A DNA stretch of 64,000 nucleotides from positions 992,001 through 1,056,000 of the forward strand of contig OZ244170.1 in assembly GCA_965216565.1 (NCBI GenBank). Direction: 5' to 3'. A model generated the notes under the pieces. It did no database searches. It was not told the origin of the DNA and saw only the letters and a program-made list of their open reading frames with translations. This document shows positions 47,072 to 64,000 of the stretch, in pieces (positions within the stretch are counted from its first letter, which is position 1; each line of letters starts with the position of its first letter). The DNA is from Bythopirellula sp. GTDB lineage: Bacteria > Planctomycetota > Planctomycetia > Pirellulales > Lacipirellulaceae. The position numbers were made by a program, and so were the translations under genes.

Positions 47072-47220
47072 AGCAAGAAGCAAGCCAAGAATCGCGATGT
47101 CGAGCATAGCCGCGATCCTACGGATCGCCGGTTTAATTTAACCTGTCGGCGTAGGCAATGTGAAAACAGGTGTTTTCGGAGGCAAGTTTCATTGAAACAG
47201 TCGATTTTGCCAAGACTGTG

Positions 47221-48435: not shown

Positions 48436-48612
48436 AGTTGGAGACTCGACTATAACCATCGCCGACCCCACAGTTCGTTGGATTACCAGACCCCGGCAGC
48501 ATTCGCAGCCCGCTGTTGTTCTGGAGTGAGGCCGTAGGCCGAACGGAAGAACAACAGCGGAAACCACCGCAACGCGCTCACTTAGGCTGGTACGAAACTT
48601 GGGAGGTTGTCA
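48436..48612 (+). mobile_element. IS3-family transposase 3' remnant with probable right end
   Basis: WRLDYNHRRPHSSLDYQTPAAFA (IS3 integrase-core C-terminus), then ...CTGGTACGAAACTTGGGAGGTTGTCA ending in CA. Confidence 0.8.
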
Positions 48613-49392
48613 GGCATGTCGGATAGATAATCAAGACGGGCTCTCGGCAATTGCAAAACACTTCCCAAGCATATGTTACAATTTGCAGCGAGATTTAGTA
48701 TTCCGATTTCGATGCGTATGCGGGCAGTTGCTGGTTCTTATCACGTGTCGCTTTAGGATGTGAAAACGCTACTAAGGTTTTAGTCACGCTCTCGGAAGAG
48801 GACGCACGACAATCCTTAATGGCGGTTTCTGCTGTTGTTCTCGGGAAATAGAGCGGTTTCTGTGAGTCTCATCCCGGTGGATTCACAGATGCGGGGCTGA
48901 GCAGGCCTTCTCTCGATTATCTTGAGGATCATTCTCGGGATGACTAATATCGACATTCCCTGAGCCTGCCTCTTGAGTGCAGGGATCTATATATCAAAGC
49001 CATTACTCGGCATAGGACAGATAAACAGGCGATGCGACCTCGGGTCTGTGAAACCCTTCGTGACCTCATCTACAACTAGCTCCTCGACGTAGGTCGATCA
49101 ACATTCTATTGTTGTCCAACAGTTCCAGACGATTTTGGTTTCATCGTATTCACGATAAGCCTTCTCACTTTCTCAAACAAGTATACGTCATCGAAATGAT
49201 ATCATTTGTTAGCCCCCGGCCGGCAATCCACCAGCTTAAGACGACAATAGGTGGAGGGAAGCTTGTTCAGTTTCCACCCGAGGTAAAATTCACCGCATAT
49301 AGTTTATGCAGCCTCCGGCATGCGGCAGTTGGATCTATCAACAGATTGGGTTGAAAGAAGAGAATTAGTTTGACAGAAATCACCGAAGCAAC

Positions 49393-49659
49393 TTACGACG
49401 ATTCGATCTTTGCCGAGAACTTTGACATTTCCCTAGAAGCTGATGTAGATTCATCCGGTCGACTATCGCACAAGTATCGATCGGGGACATAGAAATACTC
49501 GATCCACTCAAGCTCAGCATCACTCCAGAATTCCTCGTCTAGGCCGACAGGGCATCCGGCAGCCTCCCATTTTAGGTAGGCGATCTCTTGGACTTGGCTA
49601 CGCGCAATCTCAAGTTCTTCAGGAGTTAGAATCAAGTCTTCGAGCGATACGATGTCCAC
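49393..49659 (-). CDS. DUF2934 domain protein
   Basis: VQEIAYLKWEAAGCPVGLDEEFWSDAE motif. Confidence 0.8.
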   Translation of the reverse strand: MDIVSLEDLILTPEELEIARSQVQEIAYLKWEAAGCPVGLDEEFWSDAELEWIEYFYVPDRYLCDSRPDESTSASREMSKFSAKIESS

Positions 49660-49691
49660 GTCTGTTCCTCACAATCTCGAAACCTTACGCC

Positions 49692-50519
49692 TTATTGAGC
49701 TAGAAAAAGAGGTCTATCTGCGTGCTGCACGGTATGCAGCATTGTTTCCCCAAATATTCTTCGCAAGATTAGGTTCCTATTACTGTTTCCCATCACTATT
49801 AGGTCAGCGTTCCAGTCGTTGGCATACGGCAGCAAGCTTCGCTTTGCAGATGAAGGTTCGTAGTCGGAATCAACACTGAAGCCGTGGGACCGGAGATAAT
49901 TCACTGCATCGCCGAGGAGTGATCTGGCAGTCGCCTGGGAGTGCTCGAAGGTTACCACTCGCAAATTCGCATCTGGCCAGAGCCGTAACTGAGCAAAACG
50001 CTTCATCGCTTTTGCAGATTCCATCGATCCGCTGTAGGCAATTAGTACATTGTTAATTCTCCTATGCTTCGGCGAGACAGTTATCAATGGACGCACACCT
50101 GCCTGGACTAGCCGAATTAGTTCGGCTGGGGGTTCATCGACGACACCATGTTCAAACAGATGCCCAAGTCCGCAAACAATAAGATCATGATAACGAGCTG
50201 CATCAGACATGCATTGGTAAGGATCACCTTCTGGGTTATTGATCGAGTGTTCGATCGCTGCCCGGGTAGCGGAATTACCAAATTCCTTAGTGACTTCTAC
50301 GATAATCTTCTTGGCTTTAGCAATTCGGTGGGCCCTCAGGTCAGCAGCTGCCGAGCCACCACCTACCGGCACAGGTCCCGTGGCACCAATCCTTTCTCGA
50401 TCGAGTATGCATAGACCTGTTAGCGATGAACGCTGCGCTCGAGCAATGTCAATCGCCATTAGGGTGGCGGCTGAGGCGTATGTTTGATCACCAAGACCTA
50501 CAAGTATGCGACGAATCAT
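49692..50519 (-). CDS. Universal stress protein (tandem domain)
   Basis: RRILVGL, VLIAYSGSMESAKA and DLIVMG...IFGETM...RPLFL motifs. Confidence 0.88.
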   Translation of the reverse strand: MIRRILVGLGDQTYASAATLMAIDIARAQRSSLTGLCILDRERIGATGPVPVGGGSAAADLRAHRIAKAKKIIVEVTKEFGNSATRAAIEHSINNPEGDPYQCMSDAARYHDLIVCGLGHLFEHGVVDEPPAELIRLVQAGVRPLITVSPKHRRINNVLIAYSGSMESAKAMKRFAQLRLWPDANLRVVTFEHSQATARSLLGDAVNYLRSHGFSVDSDYEPSSAKRSLLPYANDWNADLIVMGNSNRNLILRRIFGETMLHTVQHADRPLFLAQ

Positions 50520-50985
50520 TCTTGTTCTCCTTTCGATCTTGCCAGCATGTTCCGCGATATTCTTTGAGCACGAGGACCGGACAATGGGCTAGACGAACAA
50601 CTTTCTCGGTAACCGAGCCTAACAGAAGACGCCTCATACCTGTCCGCCCATGGGAGGGGATTACGATGGCATCAGCCCCGATTTGTTTGGCAAATTCAGC
50701 GATTTCATTTCCTGGGTCTCCAAATTCCACATGGAATGATACTTCCCGAAACCTATCGGACCCCAGAGACTTCTGGTAGTACGCTTCTACATTCTTCCGT
50801 CTTTCATCTATTGGCTTCGCATCCCACATGGCAGCTGGAGAAGTGACTGCTAAATCCTGGTCAATGTGGACGACATGAACATCATGTGGTGTAGATGCCA
50901 ACTTGAGGGCCGTCTTAATCGCACCCGCCGAGGCCTTGCCAAAGTCGATCGGTACGAGCAGTTTCTTATCGGTAAACCAACTCAT
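50488..50985 (-). CDS. Universal stress protein
   Basis: LLVPIDF, GDP and IVIPSHGRTGMRRLLLGSVTEKVVRLAHCPVLV motifs. Confidence 0.93.
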   Translation of the reverse strand: MSWFTDKKLLVPIDFGKASAGAIKTALKLASTPHDVHVVHIDQDLAVTSPAAMWDAKPIDERRKNVEAYYQKSLGSDRFREVSFHVEFGDPGNEIAEFAKQIGADAIVIPSHGRTGMRRLLLGSVTEKVVRLAHCPVLVLKEYRGTCWQDRKENKNDSSHTCRSW

Positions 50986-51503
50986 TGTGGCGCACCTTTC
51001 AAAATAGAAGTGTGATGATCTGCGTCAACAATCGTCTGCAAAATATCCAGAGCGCTTACCACGCCTATTGGGCATGCACGTTCGTCCACAACGATTAGGC
51101 GATGAATGTTTTCTCCGCTGATGTATCTTGCAGCGTCGATCACTGATTGTTCGACCCCGATGGTTTGGACTGCAGAGCTCATGTGCCTTTCGACCCGGTC
51201 CTCTGGGACTACTTCAATCTGAAGCGATCCATAGGCACCTTCATGTGAGACTTCAACTTCATTGGCAACTGACGAATAGCCATCTCCCTGCGAGTTCCGA
51301 TAGCATCTCCTTATGATATCTGAGTTGCTCACGACACCCACGCATTTCCCCATCTCATCGATCACCGGGAGTCCGCTGATGTCGTGCTCTACCAGTAGTT
51401 TTTCGGCCTCTACGATCGTCGCATTCTTGGAAACCGACCAGATCTGCAGTGACATGATGTCTTTTACCTTGTACTCATGTAGTTTCTCGAAAGTGTCGTT
51501 CAT
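50982..51503 (-). CDS. CBS domain pair protein
   Basis: VKDIMS, ISGLPVID...GVVSNSDI, VERHMS and IHRLIVVD..GVVSALDI motifs; ATGA-coupled. Confidence 0.9.
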   Translation of the reverse strand: MNDTFEKLHEYKVKDIMSLQIWSVSKNATIVEAEKLLVEHDISGLPVIDEMGKCVGVVSNSDIIRRCYRNSQGDGYSSVANEVEVSHEGAYGSLQIEVVPEDRVERHMSSAVQTIGVEQSVIDAARYISGENIHRLIVVDERACPIGVVSALDILQTIVDADHHTSILKGAPQ

Positions 51504-51982
51504 CTTTCGGCCACACTTTCTGGTTGAGTACCTTCTGCCAGCAAGGGACTGGAGTTGGCCCGAACAGTAAGCACTGGGCAAGATGCTGTCCTGACAATCT
51601 CTTCGGCAACGCTTCCCAATAGAAGTTTACTAATGCCAGAGACTCCATGAGTGCCAATCACAATCAAATCAGCGTGTTTCCTCTGAGAAAACTTGACGAT
51701 TTCGTCCGCCGCTTCACCTCTAAGAAAGTGGTGCTCGAAGTTAACTCTTGCAGACTGAGGCTTGACTCTCTCCAGCTTTTCCAGTTGCTCCTGGGCAATT
51801 CGATCTATCTGTGGGAGGTAGCCATACCCCACATCTCCTAACACCAGCCCCGGAGTCTCATCATCCACATGCACGATCAGCAATCGGGCCTTCTCCACAG
51901 CAGCAAATGCCGTCGCGTATTGCAGAGCGGCTACACTGCACTGTGAGAAGTCTGTGGCATAGATGATCGTATCGATATTCAT
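51500..51982 (-). CDS. Universal stress protein
   Basis: IIYATDFS and DLIVIGTHGVSGISKLLLGSVAEEIVRTASCPVLTV motifs. Confidence 0.93.
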   Translation of the reverse strand: MNIDTIIYATDFSQCSVAALQYATAFAAVEKARLLIVHVDDETPGLVLGDVGYGYLPQIDRIAQEQLEKLERVKPQSARVNFEHHFLRGEAADEIVKFSQRKHADLIVIGTHGVSGISKLLLGSVAEEIVRTASCPVLTVRANSSPLLAEGTQPESVAER

Positions 51983-52012
51983 TGATCCGATTGGCTAGAG
52001 ATACCGTTCCTG

Positions 52013-52534
52013 CTAATGTTGACTGAACCTCGACATGGCTGGACTGATGGGGGTTTGATTCGACTTTTTCGATGTTTCTTTGCTGTCTCCATGCTTTATC
52101 GGCGACTTAACTGTGAGGACGGGGCATGAAGCCTTCCGCAAGACGCCTTCGGCGATACTACCCATCAGCATTCGCGATAGCCCTGTGCGACCATGAGTTC
52201 CCATAACGATTAAATCAACTTTTTCTCGTTCTGCAAACTCGACGATTTGAGATACAGCCGCTCCGGTTAGGTAGTGCCTTTGCACTCGAACACCCTCTCG
52301 TGTTGGTTTTATGTTTTCAAGCTGCTTTCGCATCACTTGCTCGAGTGAATCTGGAACATCTTCTGCGTAAGCAAAGCTACCATAGCCCCCAAGATAGGAC
52401 TGTGTGTCTTCGGCAGCATGTACGATAAATAAAGTTGCACCTGTTTCGGCCGCAAGAGCTGATGCATAGCCCAGAGCCGCGTTACTCGAGTGTGAAAAAT
52501 CTGTTGGGCATAGAATTGATTTAATTCTCATCAT
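52013..52534 (-). CDS. Universal stress protein
   Basis: ILCPTDFS and DLIVMGTHGRTGLSRMLMGSIAEGVLRKASCPVLTV motifs. Confidence 0.94.
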   Translation of the reverse strand: MMRIKSILCPTDFSHSSNAALGYASALAAETGATLFIVHAAEDTQSYLGGYGSFAYAEDVPDSLEQVMRKQLENIKPTREGVRVQRHYLTGAAVSQIVEFAEREKVDLIVMGTHGRTGLSRMLMGSIAEGVLRKASCPVLTVKSPIKHGDSKETSKKSNQTPISPAMSRFSQH

Positions 52535-52610
52535 AAGCTCCTTTTGATCTCATCAGAAAGCCTCGCTGCCGCGCTTTACCGTTGAACACGAGTGCAGCAA
52601 CTAAAACATC

Positions 52611-52626
52611 CGCAACTCGTGTGCCA
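52611..52626 (-). promoter_or_regulatory. Sigma54 -24/-12 promoter for the USP/CBS operon
   Basis: TGGCACACGAGTTGCG (GG-N10-GC). Confidence 0.8.
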
Positions 52627-52708
52627 TAGTGAAAGACGAACAAGACGAGTCTAGTTGCCGTGAGCATATTCCCTGGCAATAGGAACTGTGCCAGATGGGA
52701 GTGCCCAC

Positions 52709-52724
52709 TGAGCCCTAACGCACA
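52709..52724. promoter_or_regulatory. Candidate enhancer (UAS) palindrome
   Basis: TGAGCCCTAACGCACA, fitting TGTGCG-N4-CGCACA, between divergent sigma54 promoters. Confidence 0.5.
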
Positions 52725-52790
52725 CACCTGGAGAGGTAGTCACCAGCGACATGCTCCGGTTTTCCGAGAAGCTTCACTTGCTGAGTAGCT

Positions 52791-52806
52791 TGGCACGGAT
52801 CGTGCT
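52791..52806 (+). promoter_or_regulatory. Sigma54 -24/-12 promoter
   Basis: TGGCACGGATCGTGCT (GG-N10-GC). Confidence 0.7.
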
Positions 52807-52861
52807 GCCATGTGCGGCAGGTGTTTGTACAGCAAGTTTCAAACCGGAAAGGAGAATCGAC

Positions 52862-53077
52862 ATGGCTACCGTAGATTCTGGGCAACATTGCCGCATCGTC
52901 GGTAAATCGCCGGGCAAGTCGGCAGAGAATGGGCCTATCAGACAACGAAACTTCTTGATTGATGAGGACCTGCACGCCGGTTACCTAATTCCGGCGATTC
53001 TAACTGGAATCATACTGTTTGGATTGCTGTCGATGGTATTTAGCGTTTTGGCAATTCTGTTAACGGGGTCTCAGTAG
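52862..53077 (+). CDS. Small membrane protein (71 aa)
   Basis: AAAGGAG RBS, ATG at 52862, C-terminal hydrophobic helix. Confidence 0.65.
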   Translation: MATVDSGQHCRIVGKSPGKSAENGPIRQRNFLIDEDLHAGYLIPAILTGIILFGLLSMVFSVLAILLTGSQ

Positions 53078-53182
53078 GTCTACGTTGCGAAGCAACCTGC
53101 CAAAGGCATCACCTTCAGTTCACGTACATCACGCTTAGCGCTATGATCGCAGTCTCGGAAAACCTATCTAGCGCAGGCGAAT

Positions 53183-53614
53183 CTACTTTACCAGCAAGAT
53201 AGGGCATTGGCTCATGATAGAAACTTGGTAGCTAAGAGTGGCCCAGCCGTGAGGTTGTTCATCAAGATTTACCCTATGAGAGCTAAGCACGATAAGATCA
53301 AACTCTTTTTGCAATGCGTAACTAACGATAGCATGGGCCCGCTTGCCCATCACAATCTTCTCATCAACGCGAACACCCGCCTGTTCAAAACCTTCCGCCC
53401 GACTGGCCAGGTTGGTACGTGCTTGCTGTTTCAATTTGTCGTAGAAAAGCAGTATCTCCGTATCATCGTCAGCGTACTCAATGGCCTCAATCACATGCAA
53501 TAGTGTTACACAGGAATGATTCTGCTTAGCGACTTTCAGGGCACATCTCAAAGCAGCCTGATTCTTTGCAGTAAAATCAAGAGGCAATAGAATCTTTTGG
53601 AACATGAGATTCAT
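53183..53614 (-). CDS. Universal stress protein
   Basis: FQKILLPLDF, DLIVLSSH and CPILLVK motifs; start at 53605 or 53614. Confidence 0.9.
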   Translation of the reverse strand: MNLMFQKILLPLDFTAKNQAALRCALKVAKQNHSCVTLLHVIEAIEYADDDTEILLFYDKLKQQARTNLASRAEGFEQAGVRVDEKIVMGKRAHAIVSYALQKEFDLIVLSSHRVNLDEQPHGWATLSYQVSIMSQCPILLVK

Positions 53615-53664
53615 CCTCGCATGTTTCGCGGTTCTTTAATGTCAGCCACCTCAATCTTAAATGC

Positions 53665-53680
53665 GGCAAACAATGTGCCG
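53665..53680 (-). promoter_or_regulatory. Sigma54 -24/-12 promoter
   Basis: CGGCACATTGTTTGCC (GG-N10-GC). Confidence 0.7.
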
Positions 53681-53730
53681 ATTGTCTTGGCCTTCTGCAT
53701 TCGGCTCCCAGTCCTGGCTAGCTCTATGAG

Positions 53731-53746
53731 TGTGCGAGTTCGCTCA
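53731..53746. promoter_or_regulatory. Candidate enhancer (UAS) palindrome
   Basis: TGTGCGAGTTCGCTCA, followed by a TGTGCG half-site at 53750. Confidence 0.55.
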
Positions 53747-53840
53747 GTCTGTGCGGACAACGTGAAGGCTAGACAAACAATGTTGTGAATTCACGTAGCA
53801 AAGTGCGCGGAACAAATGCTGGTATTCTCTGCGAAGGCAT

Positions 53841-53856
53841 TGGCATGCATCTTGCA
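53841..53856 (+). promoter_or_regulatory. Sigma54 -24/-12 promoter
   Basis: TGGCATGCATCTTGCA. Confidence 0.8.
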
Positions 53857-53935
53857 AGAAGCTTCTGAAGTGGCGGGCGGAGCGTTGATCAGGGCAGCCA
53901 CCGTTTCTTTTCTATCTAAGTGAGGAGTGTACGAC

Positions 53936-54625
53936 ATGACAACTTACGCGAATTCTCGTGGCGCGGCACTAGAGCGTGCCTATCAACACTGGCGAGAACG
54001 AGGGGCCCTATTGAAGCTGCCAGTTCACAAGGACACTAGACCTCCGTTGACAATAGCCATCAGTAGAGAGCTAGGCGCTGGCGGCAGTGCGATAGCCCAT
54101 GCAATTGCTGAGAAAAAGGGTTGGCCTCTTTACGACCGTGAATTGGTAGAACAGATTTCAGAGGATACGGGCATTCGATCCCAGCTATTGGAAAAACTCG
54201 ATGAGAAGAGCCCTAGCTGGTTGGCGGAGTGTCTCGAAGGGTTCTCCGATGAACGAAATATTAGCGGTGCTGGATACGCAATCCGACTCCGTGATATTCT
54301 GCTAGCCCTATACTATCACGGCAACTGCGTAATTCTTGGTCGCGGCGCAGCTCAGCTGCTTCCGCCAGAGAAAACCCTTCGCATCCGTTTGGTAGCTCCA
54401 AAGAGCTTGAGAATCGAACGGATGTCCAAGATTCTTGGCTCCCAGGATGATGCAGTTCGAATCGTGACAGAATCGGACCGAGATCGCGAGTCGTTTGTAA
54501 GAAGATACTTTTTCAAGGATCCTGCATCTCTGGAGAGCTACGACTTGACGCTAGACACCTCGAGATTCTCACGAAATGGCTGCGTGAATACCTTATTGAG
54601 TGCTATTGAGGGGCACAAAGCCTGA
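53936..54625 (+). CDS. Cytidylate kinase-like family protein (Cytidylate_kin2 type)
   Basis: TIAISRELGAGG, YDREL, CVILGRGA, IRLVAP and YDLTLDTS motifs; GAGGAG RBS. Confidence 0.85.
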   Translation: MTTYANSRGAALERAYQHWRERGALLKLPVHKDTRPPLTIAISRELGAGGSAIAHAIAEKKGWPLYDRELVEQISEDTGIRSQLLEKLDEKSPSWLAECLEGFSDERNISGAGYAIRLRDILLALYYHGNCVILGRGAAQLLPPEKTLRIRLVAPKSLRIERMSKILGSQDDAVRIVTESDRDRESFVRRYFFKDPASLESYDLTLDTSRFSRNGCVNTLLSAIEGHKA

Positions 54626-54797
54626 TATGTGAAATAGTCGAACAAGAGAATTGTGATTCTTCCCTGCCTTGCATGAAGCGAATGTTCGTCCAAGAATGGA
54701 AGTTGCGTTGCAGCTGCTTTCTATGTAACGAATAGTTGCTGCTCGTAGAAATTCGGCATGCGATGGAAATTTAGTGCGCAAGCGCTCTGGAGGAATC

Positions 54798-56624
54798 ATG
54801 GAAAGCCCCAAGTGGGAACGTACTGAATCTCTGGAGCGAGAGTTTGGACGCATTCTTGAGGATTCGTTAAACGAGATCTTTATCTTCGATGCCGATTCGC
54901 TCAAGTTTATTCTTGTAAACCGAGGAGCCAGAGAGAATCTCGGCTTCACGATCGAGGAACTTCAGAACCTCACACCGGTTGACATCAAGCCGGAGTTCTC
55001 GCGAGTGGCATTCGAAGAGTTGATATCGCCGCTCCGCGAAGGTCGCGAAGAGTCAATATGTTTCAACACTGTGCACAGCCGTAAAAGTGGCTCTCAATAC
55101 AATGTAGAGGTGCATTTGCAGCTTGCCACATTTCACGACACCCCTGTATTCATAGCGATTATTCTCGATACGACAGATCGCTTGCGAGCTGAAGGTGAGC
55201 TACGAGTTCGCAATCGTGCCATCGAATCGGTTGGAGTGGGAATCGTTATTACCGATGCAACTCTGTCTGAGATGCCTATTGTCTATTGCAATTTGGCATT
55301 TGAGCAGATTACTGGTTATTCCAAACATGAGATCGTCGGACATAATTGCCGATTTCTACAGCAAGACGACCGTAACCAAGAGGCGCGTCATGCCATTCGA
55401 GAAGCTGTGATAGAAGGCCGCGGTTGCCAAACCTTGATTCGCAACTATCGTAAAAATGGCGAAATGTTTTGGAACAACCTCAGGATTTCACCTGTGAGAA
55501 ATCCTGATGGAGCCGTGACGCACTTCGTAGGTCTCACTGATGATGTAACGCATCGAATTCTGGCGGAAGATGATAAAAAGGATCGGGAAGCTCGACTTGC
55601 GGCGATACTAGACACGGCAGTCGAGGCGATCATCACTATTGACGATAAAGGCATTTGCGAGTCGATCAACACAGCTGGAGAACGGATGTTCGGCTACTCC
55701 GCGGCCGAGATTATTGGCAACAACGTGTCGATGCTTATGCCGTCGCCTTATCGTGAAGAGCATGGGCGATATCTTTCCGACTACTTAGAGACTGGTGAGA
55801 AGAAAATCATTGGCGTAGGTCGGGAAGTTGTCGGAAAGCGAAAAGATGGTAGTGAATTTCCAATTCACCTCTCGGTGAGTGAAGTTCATCTCAAGGAACG
55901 CAGGATCTTTACTGGTATTATTCAGGACATTAGCCAGCGCAAAGCGGCCCAGGTGCGATTGGTTCAGGCGGAAAGGCTTGCGGTGCTGGGCGAGGCGATG
56001 GCGCGTTTGGCGCATGAAGGTCGAAATTCATTACAACGAATCCAGATTGCCGTGGAAACGGCACGAATGTGTGAGCCCTCCTCGGAGATTTTAGCAGCTC
56101 AATTCGACTCGATTGAGAAAGCTAGTGATGGCTTAGATTCATTACTGGAGGAACTCCGCAATTATGCTGCGCCACTGACCCTTGAGAAAACAGAATGTCC
56201 GATCCCAAACGTGTGGCGTTCCGCCTGGCAATCTATCGACTCGCTGCGAGAGGGACGCGACGCTATGCTGGTTGAAGATATTCCAGACGAACAAATACTG
56301 CTTCCTGTCGATAAGTTTCGCTTAGGGCAATTGTTTCGAAACATCTTTGAGAACGCTCTGGCCGCATGCTCTGACCCAGTGGTAATCGTGATTTCAGCTT
56401 CTCATAGCCGCGATCAATGGATGATAAACATCAGAGACAATGGTCCAGGCCTGACAACTGAACAGAGCGAGCGCGTTTTTGAACCTTTTTTCACAACCAA
56501 AACCAAGGGAACTGGTCTCGGCATGGCCATAGCCCGCCGCATCGTGGAAGCCCATGGCGGCTCCATTGCCGTGGCGCGCTCTACGCAACAGGGTGCCGAA
56601 TTTGAAATCGCCCTGCCTCTCTAG
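54798..56624 (+). CDS. Cytoplasmic sensor histidine kinase: PAS, LOV, FixL-like PAS, HisKA, HATPase
   Basis: GHNCRFLQ LOV motif; MLMPSPYREEHGRYL...IIGVGREVVGKRKDG FixL-like PAS; LAHEGRN H-box; N, DNGPG, FEPFFTTK and GTGLG boxes. Confidence 0.92.
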   Translation: MESPKWERTESLEREFGRILEDSLNEIFIFDADSLKFILVNRGARENLGFTIEELQNLTPVDIKPEFSRVAFEELISPLREGREESICFNTVHSRKSGSQYNVEVHLQLATFHDTPVFIAIILDTTDRLRAEGELRVRNRAIESVGVGIVITDATLSEMPIVYCNLAFEQITGYSKHEIVGHNCRFLQQDDRNQEARHAIREAVIEGRGCQTLIRNYRKNGEMFWNNLRISPVRNPDGAVTHFVGLTDDVTHRILAEDDKKDREARLAAILDTAVEAIITIDDKGICESINTAGERMFGYSAAEIIGNNVSMLMPSPYREEHGRYLSDYLETGEKKIIGVGREVVGKRKDGSEFPIHLSVSEVHLKERRIFTGIIQDISQRKAAQVRLVQAERLAVLGEAMARLAHEGRNSLQRIQIAVETARMCEPSSEILAAQFDSIEKASDGLDSLLEELRNYAAPLTLEKTECPIPNVWRSAWQSIDSLREGRDAMLVEDIPDEQILLPVDKFRLGQLFRNIFENALAACSDPVVIVISASHSRDQWMINIRDNGPGLTTEQSERVFEPFFTTKTKGTGLGMAIARRIVEAHGGSIAVARSTQQGAEFEIALPL

Positions 56625-56811
56625 CGTAGATTTAACACACTTCCTGTAAGTGCATCACCAGCTGACAAGTGTGCTGATACGCGCGCTCTATTAGTCATGG
56701 CTGCACACAAGCCGAGGGCAGTCTAGCTGCTTTAGCTACGTTGCGGTCTATCTATTTAATAAAAACCCTCGATTGAATCGCATTGCACTGTGGCCCCATC
56801 GTTCCTGGAAC

Positions 56812-56827
56812 TGGCATGAGTATTGCA
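56812..56827 (+). promoter_or_regulatory. Sigma54 -24/-12 promoter
   Basis: TGGCATGAGTATTGCA. Confidence 0.8.
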
Positions 56828-56911
56828 GTTCAGAAGTTGCAGAGGAAAAGTGCGCTTCAATAGTCTGCGTACTCTGTCCGATCGTTTAGTCCAGATATAC
56901 GAGTCGAGTAG

Positions 56912-57184
56912 ATGGCTATTCAACCAATCAATCAACGTGCTGCAAGAACAAGAGAACCAGGCAAAAAATACGTTATACAGAATGATATAGACTGCCCCGT
57001 TGCCGATGCCCTTCGCAGGAATGCCCGTGGCGGAATGTGGTGTGTGCAGTGCGAGTTTAGGGAGGGGCTGGCAATACTATACGGCAAGGTTGCCAGCTAC
57101 TACCTGAAGCAAATCGCGCAGGAGACGGCAAAAAGCGTTGAAGGCGTCGAACTGGTTATCAATAGGGTAAACGTGTCGGTGTGA
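56912..57184 (+). CDS. BON domain protein
   Basis: LYGKVASYYLKQIAQETAKSVEGVELVINRVNV motif. Confidence 0.8.
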   Translation: MAIQPINQRAARTREPGKKYVIQNDIDCPVADALRRNARGGMWCVQCEFREGLAILYGKVASYYLKQIAQETAKSVEGVELVINRVNVSV

Positions 57185-57297
57185 CGATGTACGTAGGCCC
57201 TGTCGCCAATCTATGCAATATTCGAGCCAGTATGTTTCCAAGGAAGGATTGGTCAATGAGTTAATGAATTGGAAACTACATTGTCAGGGGGAAATAG

Positions 57298-57750
57298 ATG
57301 CCAAAGCACCTCTCAATTCTTATTGTTGAATACGATAACAGAGCAAGAGATGGACTGACGAAAAAGTTCTTGTCTCTGGGAAACCTAGTAGTGGCAGTTT
57401 GCCATCCAAGACTAGCCCTGGAGGCCGCGACGATACACGACTTCGACGCGGCCGTCATTGATCAGTCCCTTCCAGAAATGCAGGGGATAGCGCTGATACC
57501 AAGGCTAAGAGGTTTGGTCGGAGACTTAAAAGTCGTGCTCCTCTCGGGGGATCCCGATGACTTGACCTCCGAAGAAGCTGTCGTGCAAGGAGCCGATGCG
57601 TTTCTGCACAAACCTTGTTTTGTAGATGATGTCGAATCGAGCGTGAGAAAAGTACTGGCAAAGAGGAATCCAGTGGATAGACCACGCTTGCCACAGTTCA
57701 ACGTCCGATTGCTTGCACCGAATGGTCTCACTGATGTAAGAGCAAACTAG
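57298..57750 (+). CDS. Single-domain response regulator (receiver)
   Basis: ILIVE, VIDQSLPEMQG, VLLSG and FLHKP motifs. Confidence 0.85.
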   Translation: MPKHLSILIVEYDNRARDGLTKKFLSLGNLVVAVCHPRLALEAATIHDFDAAVIDQSLPEMQGIALIPRLRGLVGDLKVVLLSGDPDDLTSEEAVVQGADAFLHKPCFVDDVESSVRKVLAKRNPVDRPRLPQFNVRLLAPNGLTDVRAN

Positions 57751-57794
57751 AAAAGACAATTGTTTTCCCGATTCCAAAGACCAATTTCGGCCGT

Positions 57795-57810
57795 TGGTAC
57801 ATGAGTTGCT
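57795..57810 (+). promoter_or_regulatory. Sigma54 -24/-12 promoter
   Basis: TGGTACATGAGTTGCT upstream of hsp20. Confidence 0.7.
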
Positions 57811-57922
57811 ATTCTAGGAATAGAGGGAAGTGACAAATACTCGTGAACTTGCAAGGCCCTGAATCATTGCAGATGCGAATCGCAATGATGAAGTAGCTTA
57901 TGATTTTCGAAAGGAGGATAAG

Positions 57923-58384
57923 ATGTCTGGGACATTAACCACTCACAGTAGGACACCGCACTCTATAAGGAACGAGCCACGGAATAACTTCTTGGACGAA
58001 ATGGAGAATATGGTCGCAAGACTATGGCACAATGGCGAAGATGGCTGGTTTGGTTCGCATAGCATGCCTTTGGTCGATATTGCCGAATCCGATTCTGCTC
58101 TAGAAATGAAGCTCGACTTACCGGGGGTCGCTCCCAAGGAGATTGACATTCAACTCAACGGCAGCGTGTTAACCATCAGTGGTGAGAGAAAAGAAGAAAA
58201 GGAAGGCAAAAGCAAGGCTTACCACCGAATGGAACGGCGAATTGGAAGTTTTTCTCGTACGTTTACACTCCCATGCCCCGTTGAGGAAGACGAAGTGGTA
58301 GCTGCCTATAAGAGTGGTGTTTTAACAATTACGCTGCCCAAGACCGAGGAGGCGAAGACGCGTAAGATTACAATCAAGTCGTAA
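57923..58384 (+). CDS. Hsp20/alpha-crystallin small heat shock protein
   Basis: DLPGV, LTISGER, ERRIGSFSRTFTLP and AAYKSGVLTITLPK motifs; AAGGAGG RBS. Confidence 0.94.
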   Translation: MSGTLTTHSRTPHSIRNEPRNNFLDEMENMVARLWHNGEDGWFGSHSMPLVDIAESDSALEMKLDLPGVAPKEIDIQLNGSVLTISGERKEEKEGKSKAYHRMERRIGSFSRTFTLPCPVEEDEVVAAYKSGVLTITLPKTEEAKTRKITIKS

Positions 58385-58435
58385 CAATGCCTATCGAAAA
58401 CTCAGATTTACCGCACAGGGTGACAACGGAATGTT

Positions 58436-58470
58436 AGTCCCGGAGGGGTTTACCCTCCGGGACTTTTCTT
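58436..58470 (+). terminator. Rho-independent terminator
   Basis: AGTCCCGGAGGG-loop-CCCTCCGGGACT followed by a T-rich tail. Confidence 0.85.
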
Positions 58471-58700
58471 TGTAGTGGAATTTGTGTTACTCCCACGCAG
58501 AATGCCATCTTCTTTCTTTTCAGCTTTGTTCTCGTGGCAGAGGGAGCGGCGTAGCCCAGTGATTCTTGGTTCGAGTATAAGCACACCAGGTATTCACGAT
58601 CTTGAACTGAGCTGCTTTTAACTTAAAGTAGTCTGTAAATCCGAATCGACACCGCCGACGAGCAAGACGGCCAGCGTTCCTGAATCACACGTCGTTACCT

Positions 58701-60134
58701 ATGTCTGAAATTGCAACTCGTACCACTGCTCGTCGGCTGTTGGGAACGCTAACCCCCTCTGGCAGGCGGTCGCTCATTCTGGTTTTGGCATGCCTGTTGC
58801 TGGCATTTGCGGTTGCCTACGTACCCGAATATGAAGGTCTCTCCAAACAGGGAATCACTGCGTTATTCATACTCGTGCTATGCGCGGGACTCTGGATGAC
58901 CGAGGCCATGCCTGCCTTTGCAGTTAGCCTATTGGCGATTGGCTTGGGAATCGCGCTATTGGGCAACGCCAACGGCACAGAACCAGATTGGGAAAAGTAC
59001 GTAGCCACCTGGGGTAGTCCACTCATTTGGTTGTTCTTCGGCGGGTTCATTTTAGCCGCAGCAGCCCAAAAGACAGGCCTGGACCATTGGATGGCCTCCC
59101 AAGTTCTCCAACGGCTTGGTACCCGGCCTGCGGTTGTCCTGCTCGGCATTATGGCAGCAACTGCTGTGCTCTCTATGTTTCTTTCCAATACGGCTACTGC
59201 CGCTTTGATGGTTGCGGTCCTTGGTCCGATTCTTGCTTCTAAACGTGATGACGAATGGACGGCCCGAGGCATGTTGTTAGGGGTCGCAGTCGCGGCCAAC
59301 CTCGGAGGCATGGGCACAATCATCGGAACGCCTCCCAATGCGATTGCAGTGGGGACCCTGTCCGGCGTTGCAGAAATCAATTTCATCCGATGGATGATCT
59401 ATGGGGTTCCCCCAGCCATTCTGCTTCTAGCCATTCTTTGGTGCGTTTTGGTCGCACGCTACCTGGGCCGAGAGGCATTTAAGTCATCAGATCGAATTGA
59501 AATCACGATCACAAAAGAAGAGCATTCATCGAGAATTCAGTTGGGCCTAGTTGTTGTTACCTTCTTTGGTACTGTGATCATGTGGATGGCCAGCCCACTG
59601 CATGGCATCCCAACCCCGGTTGTATCATTCATCCCGATTTGTATTTTAACTGCAACCGGCGTCCTAGATGCACATGATGTGCGTGGAATCTCGTGGGATG
59701 TATTACTGCTAATTGCCGGGGGTTTGTCTCTGGGGATCGCAATCGCTGATAGTGGATTGGCAGAGTGGTTCGTTTCTCAGTTCCCATTCGATAGCTTCGG
59801 CCCAGAGATGATTGCATTGGTTGTTGGCTATGTGGCAATCCTTCTTTCGAACCTAATGAGCAATACGGCCGCGGCAAACATTATCTTGCCAATCATGGTG
59901 GCACTTTTGAGTCGTGAGAACGCCCATCTAGTTATACCAATCGCGCTCTCGGCATCGGCAGCAATGTGTCTGCCAATTTCTACTCCACCCAATGCGATAG
60001 TTTATGGAACGGAGAAGATCCGCTCTTCCGATTTGCTTGTCACAGGCCTATTTACTGGCGTGCTTACACCCCCTGTGGTAGTCGGGTGGACGATGATTGT
60101 CGAAGCTACTGGCCTATTCGCTACAAGTAGCTAA
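58701..60134 (+). CDS. DASS/SLC13 family anion transporter
   Basis: SMFLSNTAT, GTIIGTPPN, SNLMSNTAA and LPISTPPNAI motifs; many TM helices. Confidence 0.92.
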   Translation: MSEIATRTTARRLLGTLTPSGRRSLILVLACLLLAFAVAYVPEYEGLSKQGITALFILVLCAGLWMTEAMPAFAVSLLAIGLGIALLGNANGTEPDWEKYVATWGSPLIWLFFGGFILAAAAQKTGLDHWMASQVLQRLGTRPAVVLLGIMAATAVLSMFLSNTATAALMVAVLGPILASKRDDEWTARGMLLGVAVAANLGGMGTIIGTPPNAIAVGTLSGVAEINFIRWMIYGVPPAILLLAILWCVLVARYLGREAFKSSDRIEITITKEEHSSRIQLGLVVVTFFGTVIMWMASPLHGIPTPVVSFIPICILTATGVLDAHDVRGISWDVLLLIAGGLSLGIAIADSGLAEWFVSQFPFDSFGPEMIALVVGYVAILLSNLMSNTAAANIILPIMVALLSRENAHLVIPIALSASAAMCLPISTPPNAIVYGTEKIRSSDLLVTGLFTGVLTPPVVVGWTMIVEATGLFATSS

Positions 60135-60898
60135 TGCACGATTCCCGCCAGCGCCAATCCAGCAGCATAGGCAAGTGCTGCGGCACCACCACCGACTAGT
60201 AGTGTTTCGGTGCCGGCCCGATACCAAGACTCGTCCACAAACCAAGACTTTCCTGCTCCGACTAAGAAGAAAGCCGCAGCAGTCAGAAATGTACTCACCA
60301 CATACGGGCTAGCTATGGAGACTGGCGAGACCATATCGAGGATGAAAGCCAGTAGTGGAATGAGGCCCACAAGTACGAAAGCGACAAGAGTAGTAAGAGC
60401 AGCGCGAATAGCGGAAGGCCCCCGCAACGATAGGCCAAGTTCCTCAACCAACATCGTGTCGACCCAGCGTTTACGGTCCGAAGTAATAACGTCTACTACG
60501 TGTTCTAAAGGTTCGCCATCGAAACCTTTTTGGGCAAAGATTTGGCGAATCTCTTCTCTCTCGCCTTCCGGGAATTCGGCAATGTGCAGTTCCTCGGTTC
60601 TGCGGGCCCGTTCTCGCAACTCTTCCTCGGTCTTTGTTCCGAGGTAGTTACTTGCGGCCATGCTAAAACCATCTCCCAAGAGATTTGCCACGCCGAGGAT
60701 GATAATCACACCTGTGGACAAACCTGCTCCTGCAACTCCAGACACAACCGCAAAGGTGGTGACGGTTCCGTCGATGGCGCCATACACAAAGTCTCGCAAG
60801 TAACTGTGCTTTGTCGGAGCTTCGAGTCGACTACGGATCTGCTCGGGGGTGTGTGATTCTAGAAATTGCCTGCGCTGCGGAGTCGTCGTCGTTTCCAT
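60131..60898 (-). CDS. VIT1/CCC1 family Fe/Mn transporter
   Basis: DFVYGAIDG, GDGFSMAASNYLG, EREEIRQIF and EELG motifs. Confidence 0.92.
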   Translation of the reverse strand: METTTTPQRRQFLESHTPEQIRSRLEAPTKHSYLRDFVYGAIDGTVTTFAVVSGVAGAGLSTGVIIILGVANLLGDGFSMAASNYLGTKTEEELRERARRTEELHIAEFPEGEREEIRQIFAQKGFDGEPLEHVVDVITSDRKRWVDTMLVEELGLSLRGPSAIRAALTTLVAFVLVGLIPLLAFILDMVSPVSIASPYVVSTFLTAAAFFLVGAGKSWFVDESWYRAGTETLLVGGGAAALAYAAGLALAGIVH

Positions 60899-62256
60899 TA
60901 TTGCAATCCGTTGATCTCGCTCTTTGAAATACTGTACTTTTCTAGCAAACGGTATAGACTTCTTCTACTCACTCCCAGCGCCTTGGCTGAGCGCATCTTG
61001 TTACCGTTTTCTTGCTGCATTGCCTGAACTACTCTGGCACGTGTTAATGTTGCTAAGTCAACTTCGGAATCGAGCACCGCATGATTGGGCGATGTGGTAG
61101 AGCCAAGCACTTCAGGTGGCAGATTCTCTTTTCTTAGCACTTCGTCCTCGGCTAACATCTTGGCCCGTTCGATAGCGTTAATGAGCTGCCTCACGTTTCC
61201 AGGCCACGCATACTGGGCAATAGTTTCCCGACAATCGGGTTCATATTCCCAGCCTGCCCCGGCAAAGTGGTCCGCCAACAGAAGGCGATCGTCGCCTCGC
61301 TCTCGCAAGGGAGGTAGCACGATCGTCATAATATTGATTCTGTAGAACAGATCTTCACGGAATCGCTTGGCTTCGACTTCTCTTGCTAGATCGCGATTGC
61401 TCGCAGCAATGATACGCACGTCGACGCGACGTTCCTTGAGAGAGCCAACACGCCGCAGTGAACCATCTTCGAGGACTCTTAGCAGTTTCGGCTGAAGCGT
61501 CGGTGACAGCTCTCCGATTTCGTCAACAAAGAGAGTGCCTCCGTCGGCCACTTCAAAGAGACCAGGCTTGGCAGTAGTGGCTCCGGTGAATGCGCCTTTC
61601 TCGTGCCCAAACAATTCACTTTCTAGTAGCTGTTCTGGCAATGCCGCACAGTTAACAACAACGAGCGGTTTGTCTGCTCGTGTGCTGGACTCATGAATCG
61701 CACGGGCCACCAGCTCTTTACCGGTCCCACTTTCACCCTGAATCAGAATTGGCTTGTTGCTAGGTGCGGAGCGATCGATGAGCCTAAACACTTCTTGCAT
61801 CGCACGTGAATCACCAACCATGTGGTGAGTGGGGGACGTGTGTTTTACGAGTGCCCGCAACTGGCGGTTTTCCTTACGGATTTTTCCCGATTCAGCCGCC
61901 CTCTGCACGACCGCGTCTAGTTGCTTCATGCGAACAGGCTTTGCTAGGAAATCAAACGCCCCAAGTTTCATAGCTTCGACAGCCTTCTCGATCGTGCCCT
62001 CCCCAGTCAGCAAGACAACTTCCATCTCAGGACTAGCGCTTTTGATTTGCTCCAGAAGTTCAATTCCAGACATGCCGGGCATCACCATATCGAGAATCGC
62101 AACCGTAAACTCACGGCTTTGCATTTGTTCAATTGCGGACTCTGCAGAATCTGCATTGTAGACAGAATGCCCAAGCTGCTTGAAGTAATTGACTAGTCCA
62201 TCGCGAAGTTCATCGTCGTCATCGACGATCAATAATTCCAATTGTGAGTCTGGCAT
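60898..62256 (-). CDS. Sigma54-dependent response regulator (NtrC/ZraR type, REC-AAA+-Fis HTH)
   Basis: VDDD/LDMVMPG receiver, GESGTGKE, ESELFGHEKGAFTGA, FREDLFYR, WPGNVRQL and LGVSRRSLYR motifs. Confidence 0.96.
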   Translation of the reverse strand: MPDSQLELLIVDDDDELRDGLVNYFKQLGHSVYNADSAESAIEQMQSREFTVAILDMVMPGMSGIELLEQIKSASPEMEVVLLTGEGTIEKAVEAMKLGAFDFLAKPVRMKQLDAVVQRAAESGKIRKENRQLRALVKHTSPTHHMVGDSRAMQEVFRLIDRSAPSNKPILIQGESGTGKELVARAIHESSTRADKPLVVVNCAALPEQLLESELFGHEKGAFTGATTAKPGLFEVADGGTLFVDEIGELSPTLQPKLLRVLEDGSLRRVGSLKERRVDVRIIAASNRDLAREVEAKRFREDLFYRINIMTIVLPPLRERGDDRLLLADHFAGAGWEYEPDCRETIAQYAWPGNVRQLINAIERAKMLAEDEVLRKENLPPEVLGSTTSPNHAVLDSEVDLATLTRARVVQAMQQENGNKMRSAKALGVSRRSLYRLLEKYSISKSEINGLQ

Positions 62257-62290
62257 GACGTTACCTAGAAAGTATCAGTCTTTGAATAGT

Positions 62291-63286
62291 TCAGCTTTGC
62301 ACAGGTCCGAAGTCTATGTAGGAAGCGATTGTCGATGCATAGTTGGCTCGCTCAAAACTCTTTGGTGAGCCGCATGAATTCCGGCTTAGTTGCCCTCGCA
62401 GCTGAGTTAGGGAGCAGTATTCATTGTAGCTCATCCATTCCAGTAGTTCCGCCCTCACAGTTTCCAAGTATTCCGCGCCATGCTTTAAGAGGGCGGAGGT
62501 CAGCATGACCACATCTGCTCCTACCGAGACGGCTTTAATCGCATCGATTCCGCTATGGATTCCAGACGAAGCGGCAAGCGAGCAGTGAGGAAGCTGGTCT
62601 CGCAAGATACCAATCCAGCGCAGCGGCAAACGATTGTCGCCAGGGCGACTCAATTCGAGATGAGAGTCGATGCTATGCTCTTTCAGGTTTACTTCAGGCT
62701 CAAGAAATCGATTGAACAGGACCAAGCCGTCCGCCCCCGCCTCAACGACTTGCCGTGCAAAGTAGGGCAAAGAAGAAAAATGGGGACCGATTTTCACCGA
62801 AATGGGGATCTGCAGTCGCTTTCGGACAGCCGCAATCACATCAAGATACTGGGCTTCAACTTGTTGTCCTGAGGTCCCAGGATCAATCGGCACGAAGTGA
62901 ATATTAAGTTCCAATGCAGAAGCCCCGGCGTCGGCGATTTGTTGGGCATACTCAGTCCATCCATCAGAGTTCTTTCCATTGATGCTCGCAATGATGGGCA
63001 TGGAGACGGCCTGACGAGCATGTTCAATGAGCTTGGGATAACAGTCGGCACCCCTATTGTAGGGCCTTAGATACGGAAAGCCTGCCAAGTCTTTGGGCGT
63101 AGGCGTCTCAGTACTTTCCCGTAAGATCTGCTCCTCGAAAAGGGAAGGTAAGACGGCCGCCCCTGCTCCCGAAGCTTCCAATCGCCGAAGCACATCCGGT
63201 TGTCCGGTGCAAGGAGATGCAGATGCAATAAGTGGACTCGTGAGGCGTAGACCCAGGTAATCCGCACTTAGATTGACTTTCTTCAT
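62291..63286 (-). CDS. Dihydroorotate dehydrogenase-like flavoprotein
   Basis: YLGLRLTSPLIASASP, VLPSLFEEQI, ALELN, GLVLFNRF and LRWIGIL motifs. Confidence 0.85.
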   Translation of the reverse strand: MKKVNLSADYLGLRLTSPLIASASPCTGQPDVLRRLEASGAGAAVLPSLFEEQILRESTETPTPKDLAGFPYLRPYNRGADCYPKLIEHARQAVSMPIIASINGKNSDGWTEYAQQIADAGASALELNIHFVPIDPGTSGQQVEAQYLDVIAAVRKRLQIPISVKIGPHFSSLPYFARQVVEAGADGLVLFNRFLEPEVNLKEHSIDSHLELSRPGDNRLPLRWIGILRDQLPHCSLAASSGIHSGIDAIKAVSVGADVVMLTSALLKHGAEYLETVRAELLEWMSYNEYCSLTQLRGQLSRNSCGSPKSFERANYASTIASYIDFGPVQS

Positions 63287-63327
63287 CGTGATCTCACGGA
63301 GATTCAGTTTCCACGCCCTTGGTCAAC

Positions 63328-63343
63328 TGCAATTCGAATGCCA
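63328..63343 (-). promoter_or_regulatory. Sigma54 -24/-12 promoter for the DHODH-like / activator / VIT1 operon
   Basis: TGGCATTCGAATTGCA. Confidence 0.8.
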
Positions 63344-63437
63344 AGCACATCAGGCAACGCACTTGACTGTTTTGGTACTGCACGTCCCACAACAACGAGT
63401 CCGGTAAAAATGGTCGCTGTCACGTGCAGACTCACGA

Positions 63438-63453
63438 AGTGCGTTTTCGCACA
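63438..63453. promoter_or_regulatory. Candidate enhancer (UAS) palindrome
   Basis: AGTGCGTTTTCGCACA. Confidence 0.55.
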
Positions 63454-63516
63454 CCCGCACACATCCAGGGAATCTCGACGCCGGGCAGAATCTGTTTCAT
63501 CCGTAGGGTAGGACTT

Positions 63517-63532
63517 TGGCACAACCCTTGCG
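63517..63532 (+). promoter_or_regulatory. Sigma54 -24/-12 promoter
   Basis: TGGCACAACCCTTGCG. Confidence 0.8.
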
Positions 63533-63584
63533 GGTTTTCTCGCGCTGTTAGCCAGATTGCTCGTATTTCGGGAGTAATGATTCC

Positions 63585-64000
63585 ATGTCCAAAACCAATA
63601 GAGACTCTTCGCTTGCAGAACTCATGAAATCCGAGCACGAGGAAATTGCTCGTGAAGTACAAGCGACCCGAGAAGAACTTGAATCAGCCAGCTGCCAGAG
63701 AAACTGTATTAATGACCAGCTGATTCAACTGTCCGAGCTGATCGAGTCCCACTTCAGGCACGAAGAGCAAGGAGGCTACATGGCCGAGGCACTGGTACGG
63801 GCACCTCAACTGCGTCCCCGGGCAGAGGCCCTTCAAAAACAGCATGAGCAGCTTCAAGAAGCAATCGACAAATTGCAACTCTTAGTGAATTCCGGAGTTG
63901 AATCAGCTTCTTGGTGGGACCAAATCCGCAACGATTTTCAACATTTTGCATCACAGTTGACAGAACACGAACACTGCGAAACAAAGCTCGTGCAAGAGGC
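63585..64000 (+). CDS. Hemerythrin (HHE) domain protein (runs off window end)
   Basis: Not in the ORF track; translated by hand: MSKTNRDSSLAELMKSEHEE...SHFRHEEQGGY...QKQHEQL...TEHEHCE (H..HxxxE..H..HxxxE); GGAG RBS. Confidence 0.82.
   Translation, partial: MSKTNRDSSLAELMKSEHEEIAREVQATREELESASCQRNCINDQLIQLSELIESHFRHEEQGGYMAEALVRAPQLRPRAEALQKQHEQLQEAIDKLQLLVNSGVESASWWDQIRNDFQHFASQLTEHEHCETKLVQE

Follow-up and report, generated by a model that had tools for sequence, protein, structure and literature searches.

The window considered here, 64,000 nucleotides of contig OZ244170.1 from the planctomycete Bythopirellula sp., is part of a 5.21-Mb single-contig genome (94% complete) and ends in a block of stress-related genes which is likely to form a low-oxygen regulon dependent on sigma54. 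A preliminary description of this DNA, made from its letters alone, had listed behind a dead integrase genes for universal stress proteins (USPs; five genes with six domains), CBS-pair, DUF2934, BON, Hsp20, hemerythrin, VIT1, DASS, cytidylate-kinase-like (PF13189) and dihydroorotate-dehydrogenase-like (DHODH-like) proteins, together with a lone receiver and an activator carrying the GAFTGA motif; all of these are indeed present where it had placed them, the integrase being interrupted by an in-frame amber stop, the receiver consisting of a single REC domain and the activator of REC, AAA+ and helix-turn-helix (HTH) domains (Table 1). What it had overlooked is a small conserved membrane-protein gene (52862-53077), for whose 71-residue product no Pfam family was found and an Atlas search returned unnamed planctomycete clusters only, and the continuation of the block beyond the window to about 69,700. 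Five of the six USP genes of the genome lie inside the block.

The Sensor Kinase

The kinase encoded in the block contains three PAS domains. The preliminary description had recognised a PAS and a LOV domain, both of which are there, and had missed the third, whose best match is to FixL heme-PAS structures (1dp6, E 7e-33); on alignment to 1dp6/8js5, His330 and Arg350 fall on FixL heme positions, which we take to be those of the proximal heme ligand and of the distal O2-binding arginine. The second domain is the LOV domain (GHNCRFLQ, Cys192; best structure match E 2e-36), with the cysteine of the GXNCRFLQ motif and the flavin-pocket asparagines in place, and with Thr255 standing where LOV receptors carry the active-site Gln. 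Among 120 listed homologues, 28 passed a filter of at least 54% identity and coverage of the sensor-kinase junction; His330, Arg350 and the H-box residue His414 are kept in all 28, the LOV Cys in 21 of the 21 that reach it, and the active-site Gln in none of these 21, its position varying freely (T, A, V, I, C, S, L, M). In 13 aligned cassette-linked kinases the LOV domain is present in five and absent in eight; the constant part is the heme PAS, a single kinase of the 13 being without its His. Close full-length or LOV-bearing kinases occur in Adhaeretor mobilis and Aeoliella mucimassa. An AlphaFold model of the kinase (pLDDT 77.5, pTM 0.34) with a fold search had the same outcome as the sequence, and against the FixL family NF041777 the kinase scores 257.6 bits vs a cut-off of 850.

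From these domains and residues, the kinase is predicted to bind both heme and flavin, the LOV domain probably being an add-on that tunes it by blue light or flavin redox. LOV receptors devoid of the Gln are still able to signal (PMC9098866), and the engineered LOV-heme-PAS-kinase YHF responds cooperatively to blue light and O2 (PMC4469895, PMC6798134); judged by domain order, the present sensor is a natural occurrence of a layout earlier built by engineers.

Sigma54 Promoters and the Shared Enhancer

The region 47,000-70,500 was scanned with the -24/-12 consensus of sigma54, at most one mismatch being allowed. Twelve sites were found in these 23.5 kb vs 0.8 expected from the genome-wide rate, and the stress block is the richest 20-kb window of the genome for such sites; a sigma70 scan gave 11 sites vs 14.6 in shuffles. 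Seven of the twelve, together with a two-mismatch site at 53680, are correctly placed before genes, and eight of the nine inferred transcription units possess a sigma54 site, in keeping with the earlier statement that most of them do; the exception is the DASS gene, which a 12-pair hairpin separates from Hsp20. Ahead of the USP-CBS operon the site is kept in 7/7 of the genus cassettes read. The remaining five sites (47087, 58786, 59975, 65433 and 57229) are not placed before genes and are probably due to chance or unexplained; among them, a one-mismatch site at 57214-57229 lies on the minus strand, just 3' of the BON gene and antisense to it, and was rejected as a promoter, having neither an enhancer nor a gene behind it. 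The genome carries one rpoN gene over the family cut-off and 16 strong matches to sigma54 activators.

When 46 sigma54 upstream regions from this genome and ten relatives were lined up, a palindrome emerged, TGTGCG-N4-CGCACA, which within two mismatches occurs in 31 of them vs 0.3 in 20 shuffles, a count that is not independent, because divergent promoters share boxes and the seed was taken from the same set. When a matrix had been built from the 37 non-self regions, its application to the window gave four boxes (52709, 53731, 56670 and 63438), at 66-142 bp from sigma54 sites and in three cases between divergent ones; seven sigma54 promoters of the block have the palindrome at this distance upstream, and it is conserved in relatives. 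As a held-out check, enhancer-promoter pairs were found in 8/10 loci added after training (sigma54 scores 9.6-18.4). Among the matches listed, activators of at least 54% identity gave 13 pairs in 18 loci (five of the 13 being in two loci that duplicate training loci) and planctomycete activators at 48-49% gave four pairs in four loci; in 58 loci of other, unrelated activators there was no pair. Genome-wide, a strong sigma54 site at 55-165 bp accompanies 8 of 307 boxes vs 2.7 expected by chance, and four of the eight are the block boxes; the predicted regulon of this genome is therefore confined to the block. The four pairs outside it, whose number fits the chance expectation and which appear intragenic or unconvincing, were rejected, as was a 19-bit box at about 65,164, which lies inside tauE without a promoter. 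As the preliminary description had proposed, sensor, activator, cis-sites and outputs are together on one block, with the heme PAS, the shared enhancer and rpoN all present.

Table 1: Genes and regulatory features of the stress block and its left flank (window coordinates unless stated otherwise).
Position	Strand	Feature	Remark
46337-47071	+	IrrE-like (Peptidase_M78) core gene	left flank of 41-kb insertion
47100-47133	.	short palindromic genome repeat, left island end	near copy at right end, genome about 1,080,135-1,080,156
47221-48567	-	tyrosine integrase remnant	split by in-frame TAG at 48178-48180
49393-49659	-	DUF2934 protein	final gene of USP operon
49692-50519	-	USP, tandem-domain	two USP stretches matched
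50488-50985	-	USP	
50982-51503	-	CBS-pair protein	ATG overlaps stop of upstream gene
51500-51982	-	USP	G-2X-G-9X-GS nucleotide-binding motif
52013-52534	-	USP	G-2X-G-9X-GS motif; opens six-gene operon
52611-52626	-	sigma54 -24/-12 site	for USP-CBS operon
52709-52724	.	enhancer palindrome	between two divergent sigma54 sites (98 and 82 bp)
52791-52806	+	sigma54 site, weaker	for small membrane protein
52862-53077	+	71-aa protein, C-terminal hydrophobic helix	orthologues in relatives G009, G004
53183-53614	-	USP	
53665-53680	-	sigma54 site, two mismatches	for USP 53183-53614
53731-53746	.	enhancer palindrome	between divergent sigma54 sites (66 and 110 bp); strongest of genome list
53841-53856	+	sigma54 site, consensus	for cytidylate-kinase-like gene and sensor kinase
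53927-54625	+	cytidylate-kinase-like protein (PF13189)	
54774-56624	+	sensor kinase	PAS, LOV, FixL-type heme PAS, HisKA (His414), HATPase
56670-56685	.	enhancer palindrome	142 bp ahead of BON promoter (143 bp in G009, G016, G018)
56812-56827	+	sigma54 site, consensus	for BON and receiver genes
56912-57184	+	BON-domain protein	
57298-57750	+	single-domain receiver	
57795-57810	+	sigma54 site	for Hsp20; no enhancer within 170 bp
57923-58384	+	Hsp20/alpha-crystallin	
58436-58474	+	intrinsic terminator-like hairpin, 12 pairs	3' of Hsp20
58701-60134	+	DASS-family anion symporter	no sigma54 site found upstream
60131-60898	-	VIT1/CCC1 transporter	
60898-62256	-	NtrC-type sigma54 activator	REC, AAA+ with GAFTGA, Fis-type HTH
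62291-63286	-	DHODH-like protein (PRK07565 over cut-off)	type found after nifJ in other genomes
63328-63343	-	sigma54 site	for DHODH-like, activator and VIT1 genes (autoregulation)
63438-63453	.	enhancer palindrome	between divergent sigma54 sites (110 and 79 bp)
63517-63532	+	sigma54 site	for hemerythrin
63585-64000	+	hemerythrin, 148 aa	runs past window, end at about 64,031
64,231-69,699 (window-equivalent; L001:3232-8700)		rhodanese-YgaP, TauE, MBL-rhodanese (persulfide-dioxygenase-like), second PckA, PEP-synthase regulator	downstream of hemerythrin

Distribution of the Cassette and Its Varying Sensors

The comparison with close relatives that had been proposed found the kinase in 7 of 26 other genomes of the genus and the activator in the same seven plus one more (activator only); the loci lie at unrelated chromosomal places and, where read, are without this integrase. 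Activator, kinase and USP-CBS-USP make up their common core; VIT1, BON, Hsp20, hemerythrin, DHODH-like and cytidylate-kinase-like genes are variable, and among the relatives' loci read only G009 has a single-domain receiver next to the cassette. In the same G009 the block exceeds 45 kb and includes genes for a lactate/malate dehydrogenase, a formate-dehydrogenase-like pair, a phosphoenolpyruvate (PEP)-utilising enzyme, a cation P-type ATPase and an AAA_33 protein, and also a USP fused to a type II/IV secretion ATPase (T2SSE; L030:10820-12493). In G016 and G018 the same enhancer boxes are also found at a separate pyruvate:ferredoxin oxidoreductase (PFOR) cluster; in G011, a pair of enhancer boxes and a consensus sigma54 site precede Rieske, cytochrome b and multi-heme cytochrome genes (L060:14000-17299). 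The DHODH-like gene is a poor marker of the cassette, since 23 of 40 relatives have it; in two such loci that were annotated it adjoins PFOR.

A scan of a genome collection with the activator alignment gave at least 80 loci; among the matches listed, all those of at least 48% identity belong to Planctomycetota, and with the genus loci they form one clade (37 rows including two duplicates, SH 99, FastTree; the tree is without the frameshifted L147). The sensors adjoining this clade vary, being a heme-PAS kinase, a protoglobin-PAS kinase (L133, L137, L140), a full set resembling NmpU/T/S (protoglobin kinase, receiver and hybrid kinase; L146, L149, partly L142) or, as a fourth form, a protoglobin fused directly to the activator; two unrelated heme folds, PAS and protoglobin, feed one activator clade. 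In L131:12144-15678 a heme-PAS kinase occupies the NmpU position and is followed by a REC-PAS hybrid kinase and a REC-ANTAR protein, the latter occurring also in L146. Among the matches listed, the activator query retrieved 22 clade activators, of which 14 have a heme sensor next to them vs 2/58 control loci (an alternative count of 28/36 is biased because it includes loci chosen by kinase), and USP genes are next to 13 of 18 clade activators vs 2/62 controls. As to the output kinases, 15 of 21 rows form a clade with the core HE[SAG]RN (SH 99; the L149 hybrid row ends a few residues past the H-box), and a class-wide kinase search gave 14/300, an undercount because only six candidates were scored per genome. 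The circuit is old in Planctomycetota.

The globin-fused activator is found in 12 of the 26 genus genomes, and these 12 all lack the receiver form; when this genome is counted, the receiver form is present in 9/27 and the globin form in 12/27, never together, an exclusion which, kin not being independent, reflects few events and not 21. The box recurs at loci of the globin form, as do the CBS, USP, BON and hemerythrin genes; one of the two activator forms is present in 20 of the 26 relatives, and six genomes (77-97% complete) gave neither. These one-component protoglobin-AAA+-HTH activators (L032:3846-5342 in G012, and 11 more genus genomes) are nested among activators adjoining a protoglobin-PAS kinase and probably originated when the kinase and receiver parts were lost. 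That genomes have one or the other of two sensor designs on a single regulon makes a clean case of evolutionary sensor replacement.

Acquisition of the Block

The block is part of an insertion, as had been claimed: the IrrE-like gene is closely followed in 17 of 20 relatives by a gene which here is 41 kb away (genome 1,080,223-1,081,050), and of the remaining three relatives two have other neighbours and one is without a downstream match. The 41-kb insertion ends at the left with the amber-stopped tyrosine integrase, whose N-terminus has diverged from that of an unbroken paralogue elsewhere in the genome, and at the right with a frameshifted serine recombinase; the GC content of the stress block is 50.2% vs 53.6% (3% of 20-kb windows are equally low), and its GC3 is 0.43-0.53 vs 0.63-0.67 in three flanking genes. 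Judged by appearance, the genes in the remainder of the island are of the PEP-CTERM, sulfatase and DUF1559 types. No tRNA was found at either island end; both ends carry a copy of a palindromic repeat (about 25-30 bp, some 20 genome copies), which may be the insertion target. The stretch at about 4,258,400-4,267,900 (G000:C1), with the unbroken integrase paralogue (52%) and a 189-bp match to window 48613-48801, is a second element of the same kind. The stretch 47150-64000 also occurs in an algae metagenome, whose contigs span it at about 98-99.9% identity.

The characterisation of the regulon as self-contained and island-borne applies to this genome only, and does not extend to the relatives, with their widespread activator forms, their cassette loci lacking this integrase where read and, in G016/G018, a separate PFOR cluster bearing the enhancer. 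In the RpoB tree of 26 genomes this genome groups with two globin-type genomes (SH 99), and in the activator tree its activator groups with those of G016/G018 (SH 99); no match to protoglobin PF11563 was found in this genome, 94% complete. As far as single-gene trees can tell, the simplest reading is that the FixL-type cassette was gained on the island from another lineage of the genus and the globin form was lost.

Proposed Function and Alternative Explanations

We consider it probable that the block is a low-O2 sigma54 regulon, autoregulated, damped by a receiver and open to light or flavin redox as a second input. The cytoplasmic kinase would read O2 via its FixL-type heme PAS; loss of O2 from the heme would, as in FixL, lead to autophosphorylation at His414 and to transfer of the phosphate to the NtrC-type activator, which is expected to bind the palindrome, in three instances between divergent promoters, and to open the seven sigma54 promoters. 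The presumed sign of the response, with the kinase on when deoxy, follows from FixL, which works in this way (PMC7078487). Since kinase and activator are each encoded in a unit with a box and a promoter of its own, positive feedback is predicted; the lone receiver would probably damp the loop, as FixT and NmpT do, and the LOV domain would tune the kinase. The outputs would comprise nucleotide-sensing and protective proteins (USP, CBS, Hsp20, BON), proteins for iron and O2 handling (hemerythrin, VIT1) and the DHODH-like flavoprotein, to which relatives would add fermentative and redox enzymes. The hemerythrin gene may be co-transcribed with the downstream genes, from rhodanese-YgaP to the PEP-synthase regulator, as a candidate arrangement; genes like these also flank clade activators in L140, L134 and L144. 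Of the low-O2/dormancy module wired through RpoN that had been envisaged, the low-O2 character and the wiring are borne out by the heme PAS, the common enhancer and rpoN, and the dormancy is not supported.

Several observations weigh against this interpretation. The palindrome seed was picked by eye from a list including this genome's own promoters; neither an enhancer box near the promoter of Hsp20 nor a sigma54 site upstream of the DASS gene was found when sought; 15 other full-score sigma54 activators are present in the genome besides that of the cassette; 8 of the 22 clade loci are without a heme sensor in the stretch examined, three of them having a PAS kinase below the heme test; and each tree was built with FastTree from a single gene, with no topology test. 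NO and CO, too, are ligands of heme PAS and globin domains. By analogy with the NmpU-type kinase, which is active with O2, the sign of control would not be fixed. Moreover, this genome has no nifJ-type PFOR over the cut-off and one COX1, and no enhancer-promoter pair was found at the cytochrome bd genes (L002:12343-14955; 5-8 kb outside the island's right end); classic respiratory outputs are therefore lacking here.

The same circuit might accordingly be pictured as a general redox-stress regulon, in which the heme reports NO, CO or the redox/energy state, or O2 turns the kinase on: the USP, CBS, Hsp20, BON, VIT1 and sulfur-transfer outputs are of a generic stress kind, the enhancer serves no respiratory ones in this genome, and an NmpU homologue is active when O2-bound (PMC11841059). 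We regard this as unlikely, since the FixL distal Arg is kept in 28/28 homologues, the enhancer-bearing clusters of relatives hold PFOR, lactate/malate dehydrogenase, formate-dehydrogenase-like and flavodoxin genes, and a DHODH-named gene of the Synechocystis nifJ operon, likened to the DHODH-like family by name, rises under micro-oxia (PMC11368403). That the outputs halt growth and let the cell survive anoxia, in a dormancy programme like that of DosR, is somewhat improbable: no block gene indicates growth arrest, sensor and regulator are without homology to DosS/DosT/DosR, and relatives tie the circuit to active fermentative metabolism, even if some output families are common with DosR (USPs, HspX, Rv2626c; PMC11203133), the longer G009 block adds the AAA_33 protein and the cation P-type ATPase, and deletion of the Burkholderia lxa cluster reduces anoxic survival (PMC3721108).

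Light as the main input, with the LOV photoreceptor kinase driving a day/night stress regulon and the heme PAS acting as a relay, would agree with the LOV Cys found in 21/21 LOV-bearing homologues, with the signalling of Gln-less LOV domains (PMC9098866) and with the recovery of the block from an algae metagenome; it is very unlikely in view of the eight of 13 aligned kinases that are without LOV yet retain the heme PAS, and of the free variation at the Gln position. Finally, both island recombinases are broken and two enhancer boxes score at only 10-11 bits, as they would in a decaying cargo cluster with inherited sites and genes and a circuit dead in this genome; every cassette frame is open with its key residues, and independent metagenome contigs match the region almost exactly, which makes such decay scarcely credible.

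A broader proposal goes beyond the low-O2 regulon, and we advance it as a possibility to which we do not incline: the kinase would be a natural light-and-O2 logic gate, the counterpart of YHF, activating the regulon solely under combined darkness and hypoxia (at night, in an algal biofilm), and planctomycetes would share one sigma54 hypoxia regulon and enhancer with an exchangeable O2 sensor (heme PAS, protoglobin kinase, phosphorelay or activator-fused globin), swapped on islands between lineages. The response to O2 loss is little known in aerobic planctomycetes, which are common on algae and particles; with a candidate master activator, its DNA site and its sensors named, regulons become predictable across the phylum and testable in cultured species, and a natural LOV-heme-PAS kinase offers a route to how one protein sums light and O2, so far studied in an engineered chimera.

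Comparison with Known Systems

The preliminary description had taken the mycobacterial DosRST system as its model. DosRST employs GAF-heme sensors, a LuxR/NarL-type regulator and the housekeeping sigma factor, whereas the domains here are PAS and sigma54 AAA+, and the wiring is without homology. The likeness consists in heme kinases active when deoxy and in USP, HspX and CBS outputs (DosS/DosT-DosR; PMC11203133). Closer models are available: in Myxococcus a hypoxia regulon that depends on sigma54 and has CBS, USP and hemerythrin outputs was already described (PMC11841059), and the low-O2-induced lxa locus of Burkholderia cenocepacia, which has only outputs in common with the present block, includes six USPs, an alpha-crystallin and phospholipid-binding proteins; it differs in having 50 genes, in not being a predicted island and in that the available text names no sigma54 activator (PMC3721108). 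The statement that such a module is undescribed in planctomycetes was also partly wrong, since sigma54 promoters enriched on USP genes in Planctomycetia, with activators labelled ZraR (PMC12316311), and a mention of nmpSTU homologues in Planctomyces sp. SH-PL14 (PMC6211767) are published. In a literature search of mainly open-access scope no account was found of this activator clade, its site, the sensor exchange or a natural LOV-heme-PAS kinase, although supplements (the Gln-less LOV list in PMC9098866, the gene tables of PMC12316311) may include these proteins.

As regards the sensor, YHF has the same order of LOV, heme PAS and histidine kinase (PMC4469895, PMC6798134), but it is engineered, whereas the cassette kinase is natural, has an extra N-terminal PAS, is without the LOV glutamine and has responses predicted from sequence. 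With FixL-FixJ(-FixT) of rhizobia and Caulobacter the block has in common the His and Arg of a heme PAS beside the kinase core and a single-domain receiver within the regulon (PMC7078487); the partner of FixL is the LuxR-type FixJ/FixK, whereas here there is a sigma54 activator and no FixJ in the block, and the kinase core belongs to the planctomycete HE[SAG]RN clade.

The nearest system is NmpRSTU of M. xanthus, whose existence means that a sigma54-wired hypoxia regulon is already known: NmpR is a sigma54 activator governed by a heme kinase, has CBS, USP and hemerythrin genes as well as its own operons among its targets and is hypoxia-induced (PMC11841059). The two are alike in the heme-sensing kinase, the NtrC-type activator with GAFTGA, the sigma54 promoters, the palindromic enhancer, the autoregulated sensor and activator operons, the CBS, USP and hemerythrin outputs (by predicted sites here) and the receiver-only sink (PMC11841059, PMC6211767). 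They differ in that NmpRSTU has the protoglobin kinase NmpU, the hybrid REC-kinase NmpS and the two-receiver NmpT, whereas here a FixL-type heme PAS is fused directly, with LOV, to an output kinase without a receiver and the lone receiver is single; in addition, no cbb3/hemN targets were found here. The NmpR site, GCGCA-N5-TGCGC, also differs from TGTGCG-N4-CGCACA, and within one mismatch it occurs in none of the 46 upstream regions (within two, in 9/46 vs 3.3 in shuffles). A myxococcal activator of an nmpSTU locus (L173) falls outside the planctomycete clade in a tree with weak deep branches that does not include M. xanthus NmpR itself. The block works like NmpRSTU, yet it stands apart from it in three respects: the protoglobin kinase, the hybrid kinase and the site.

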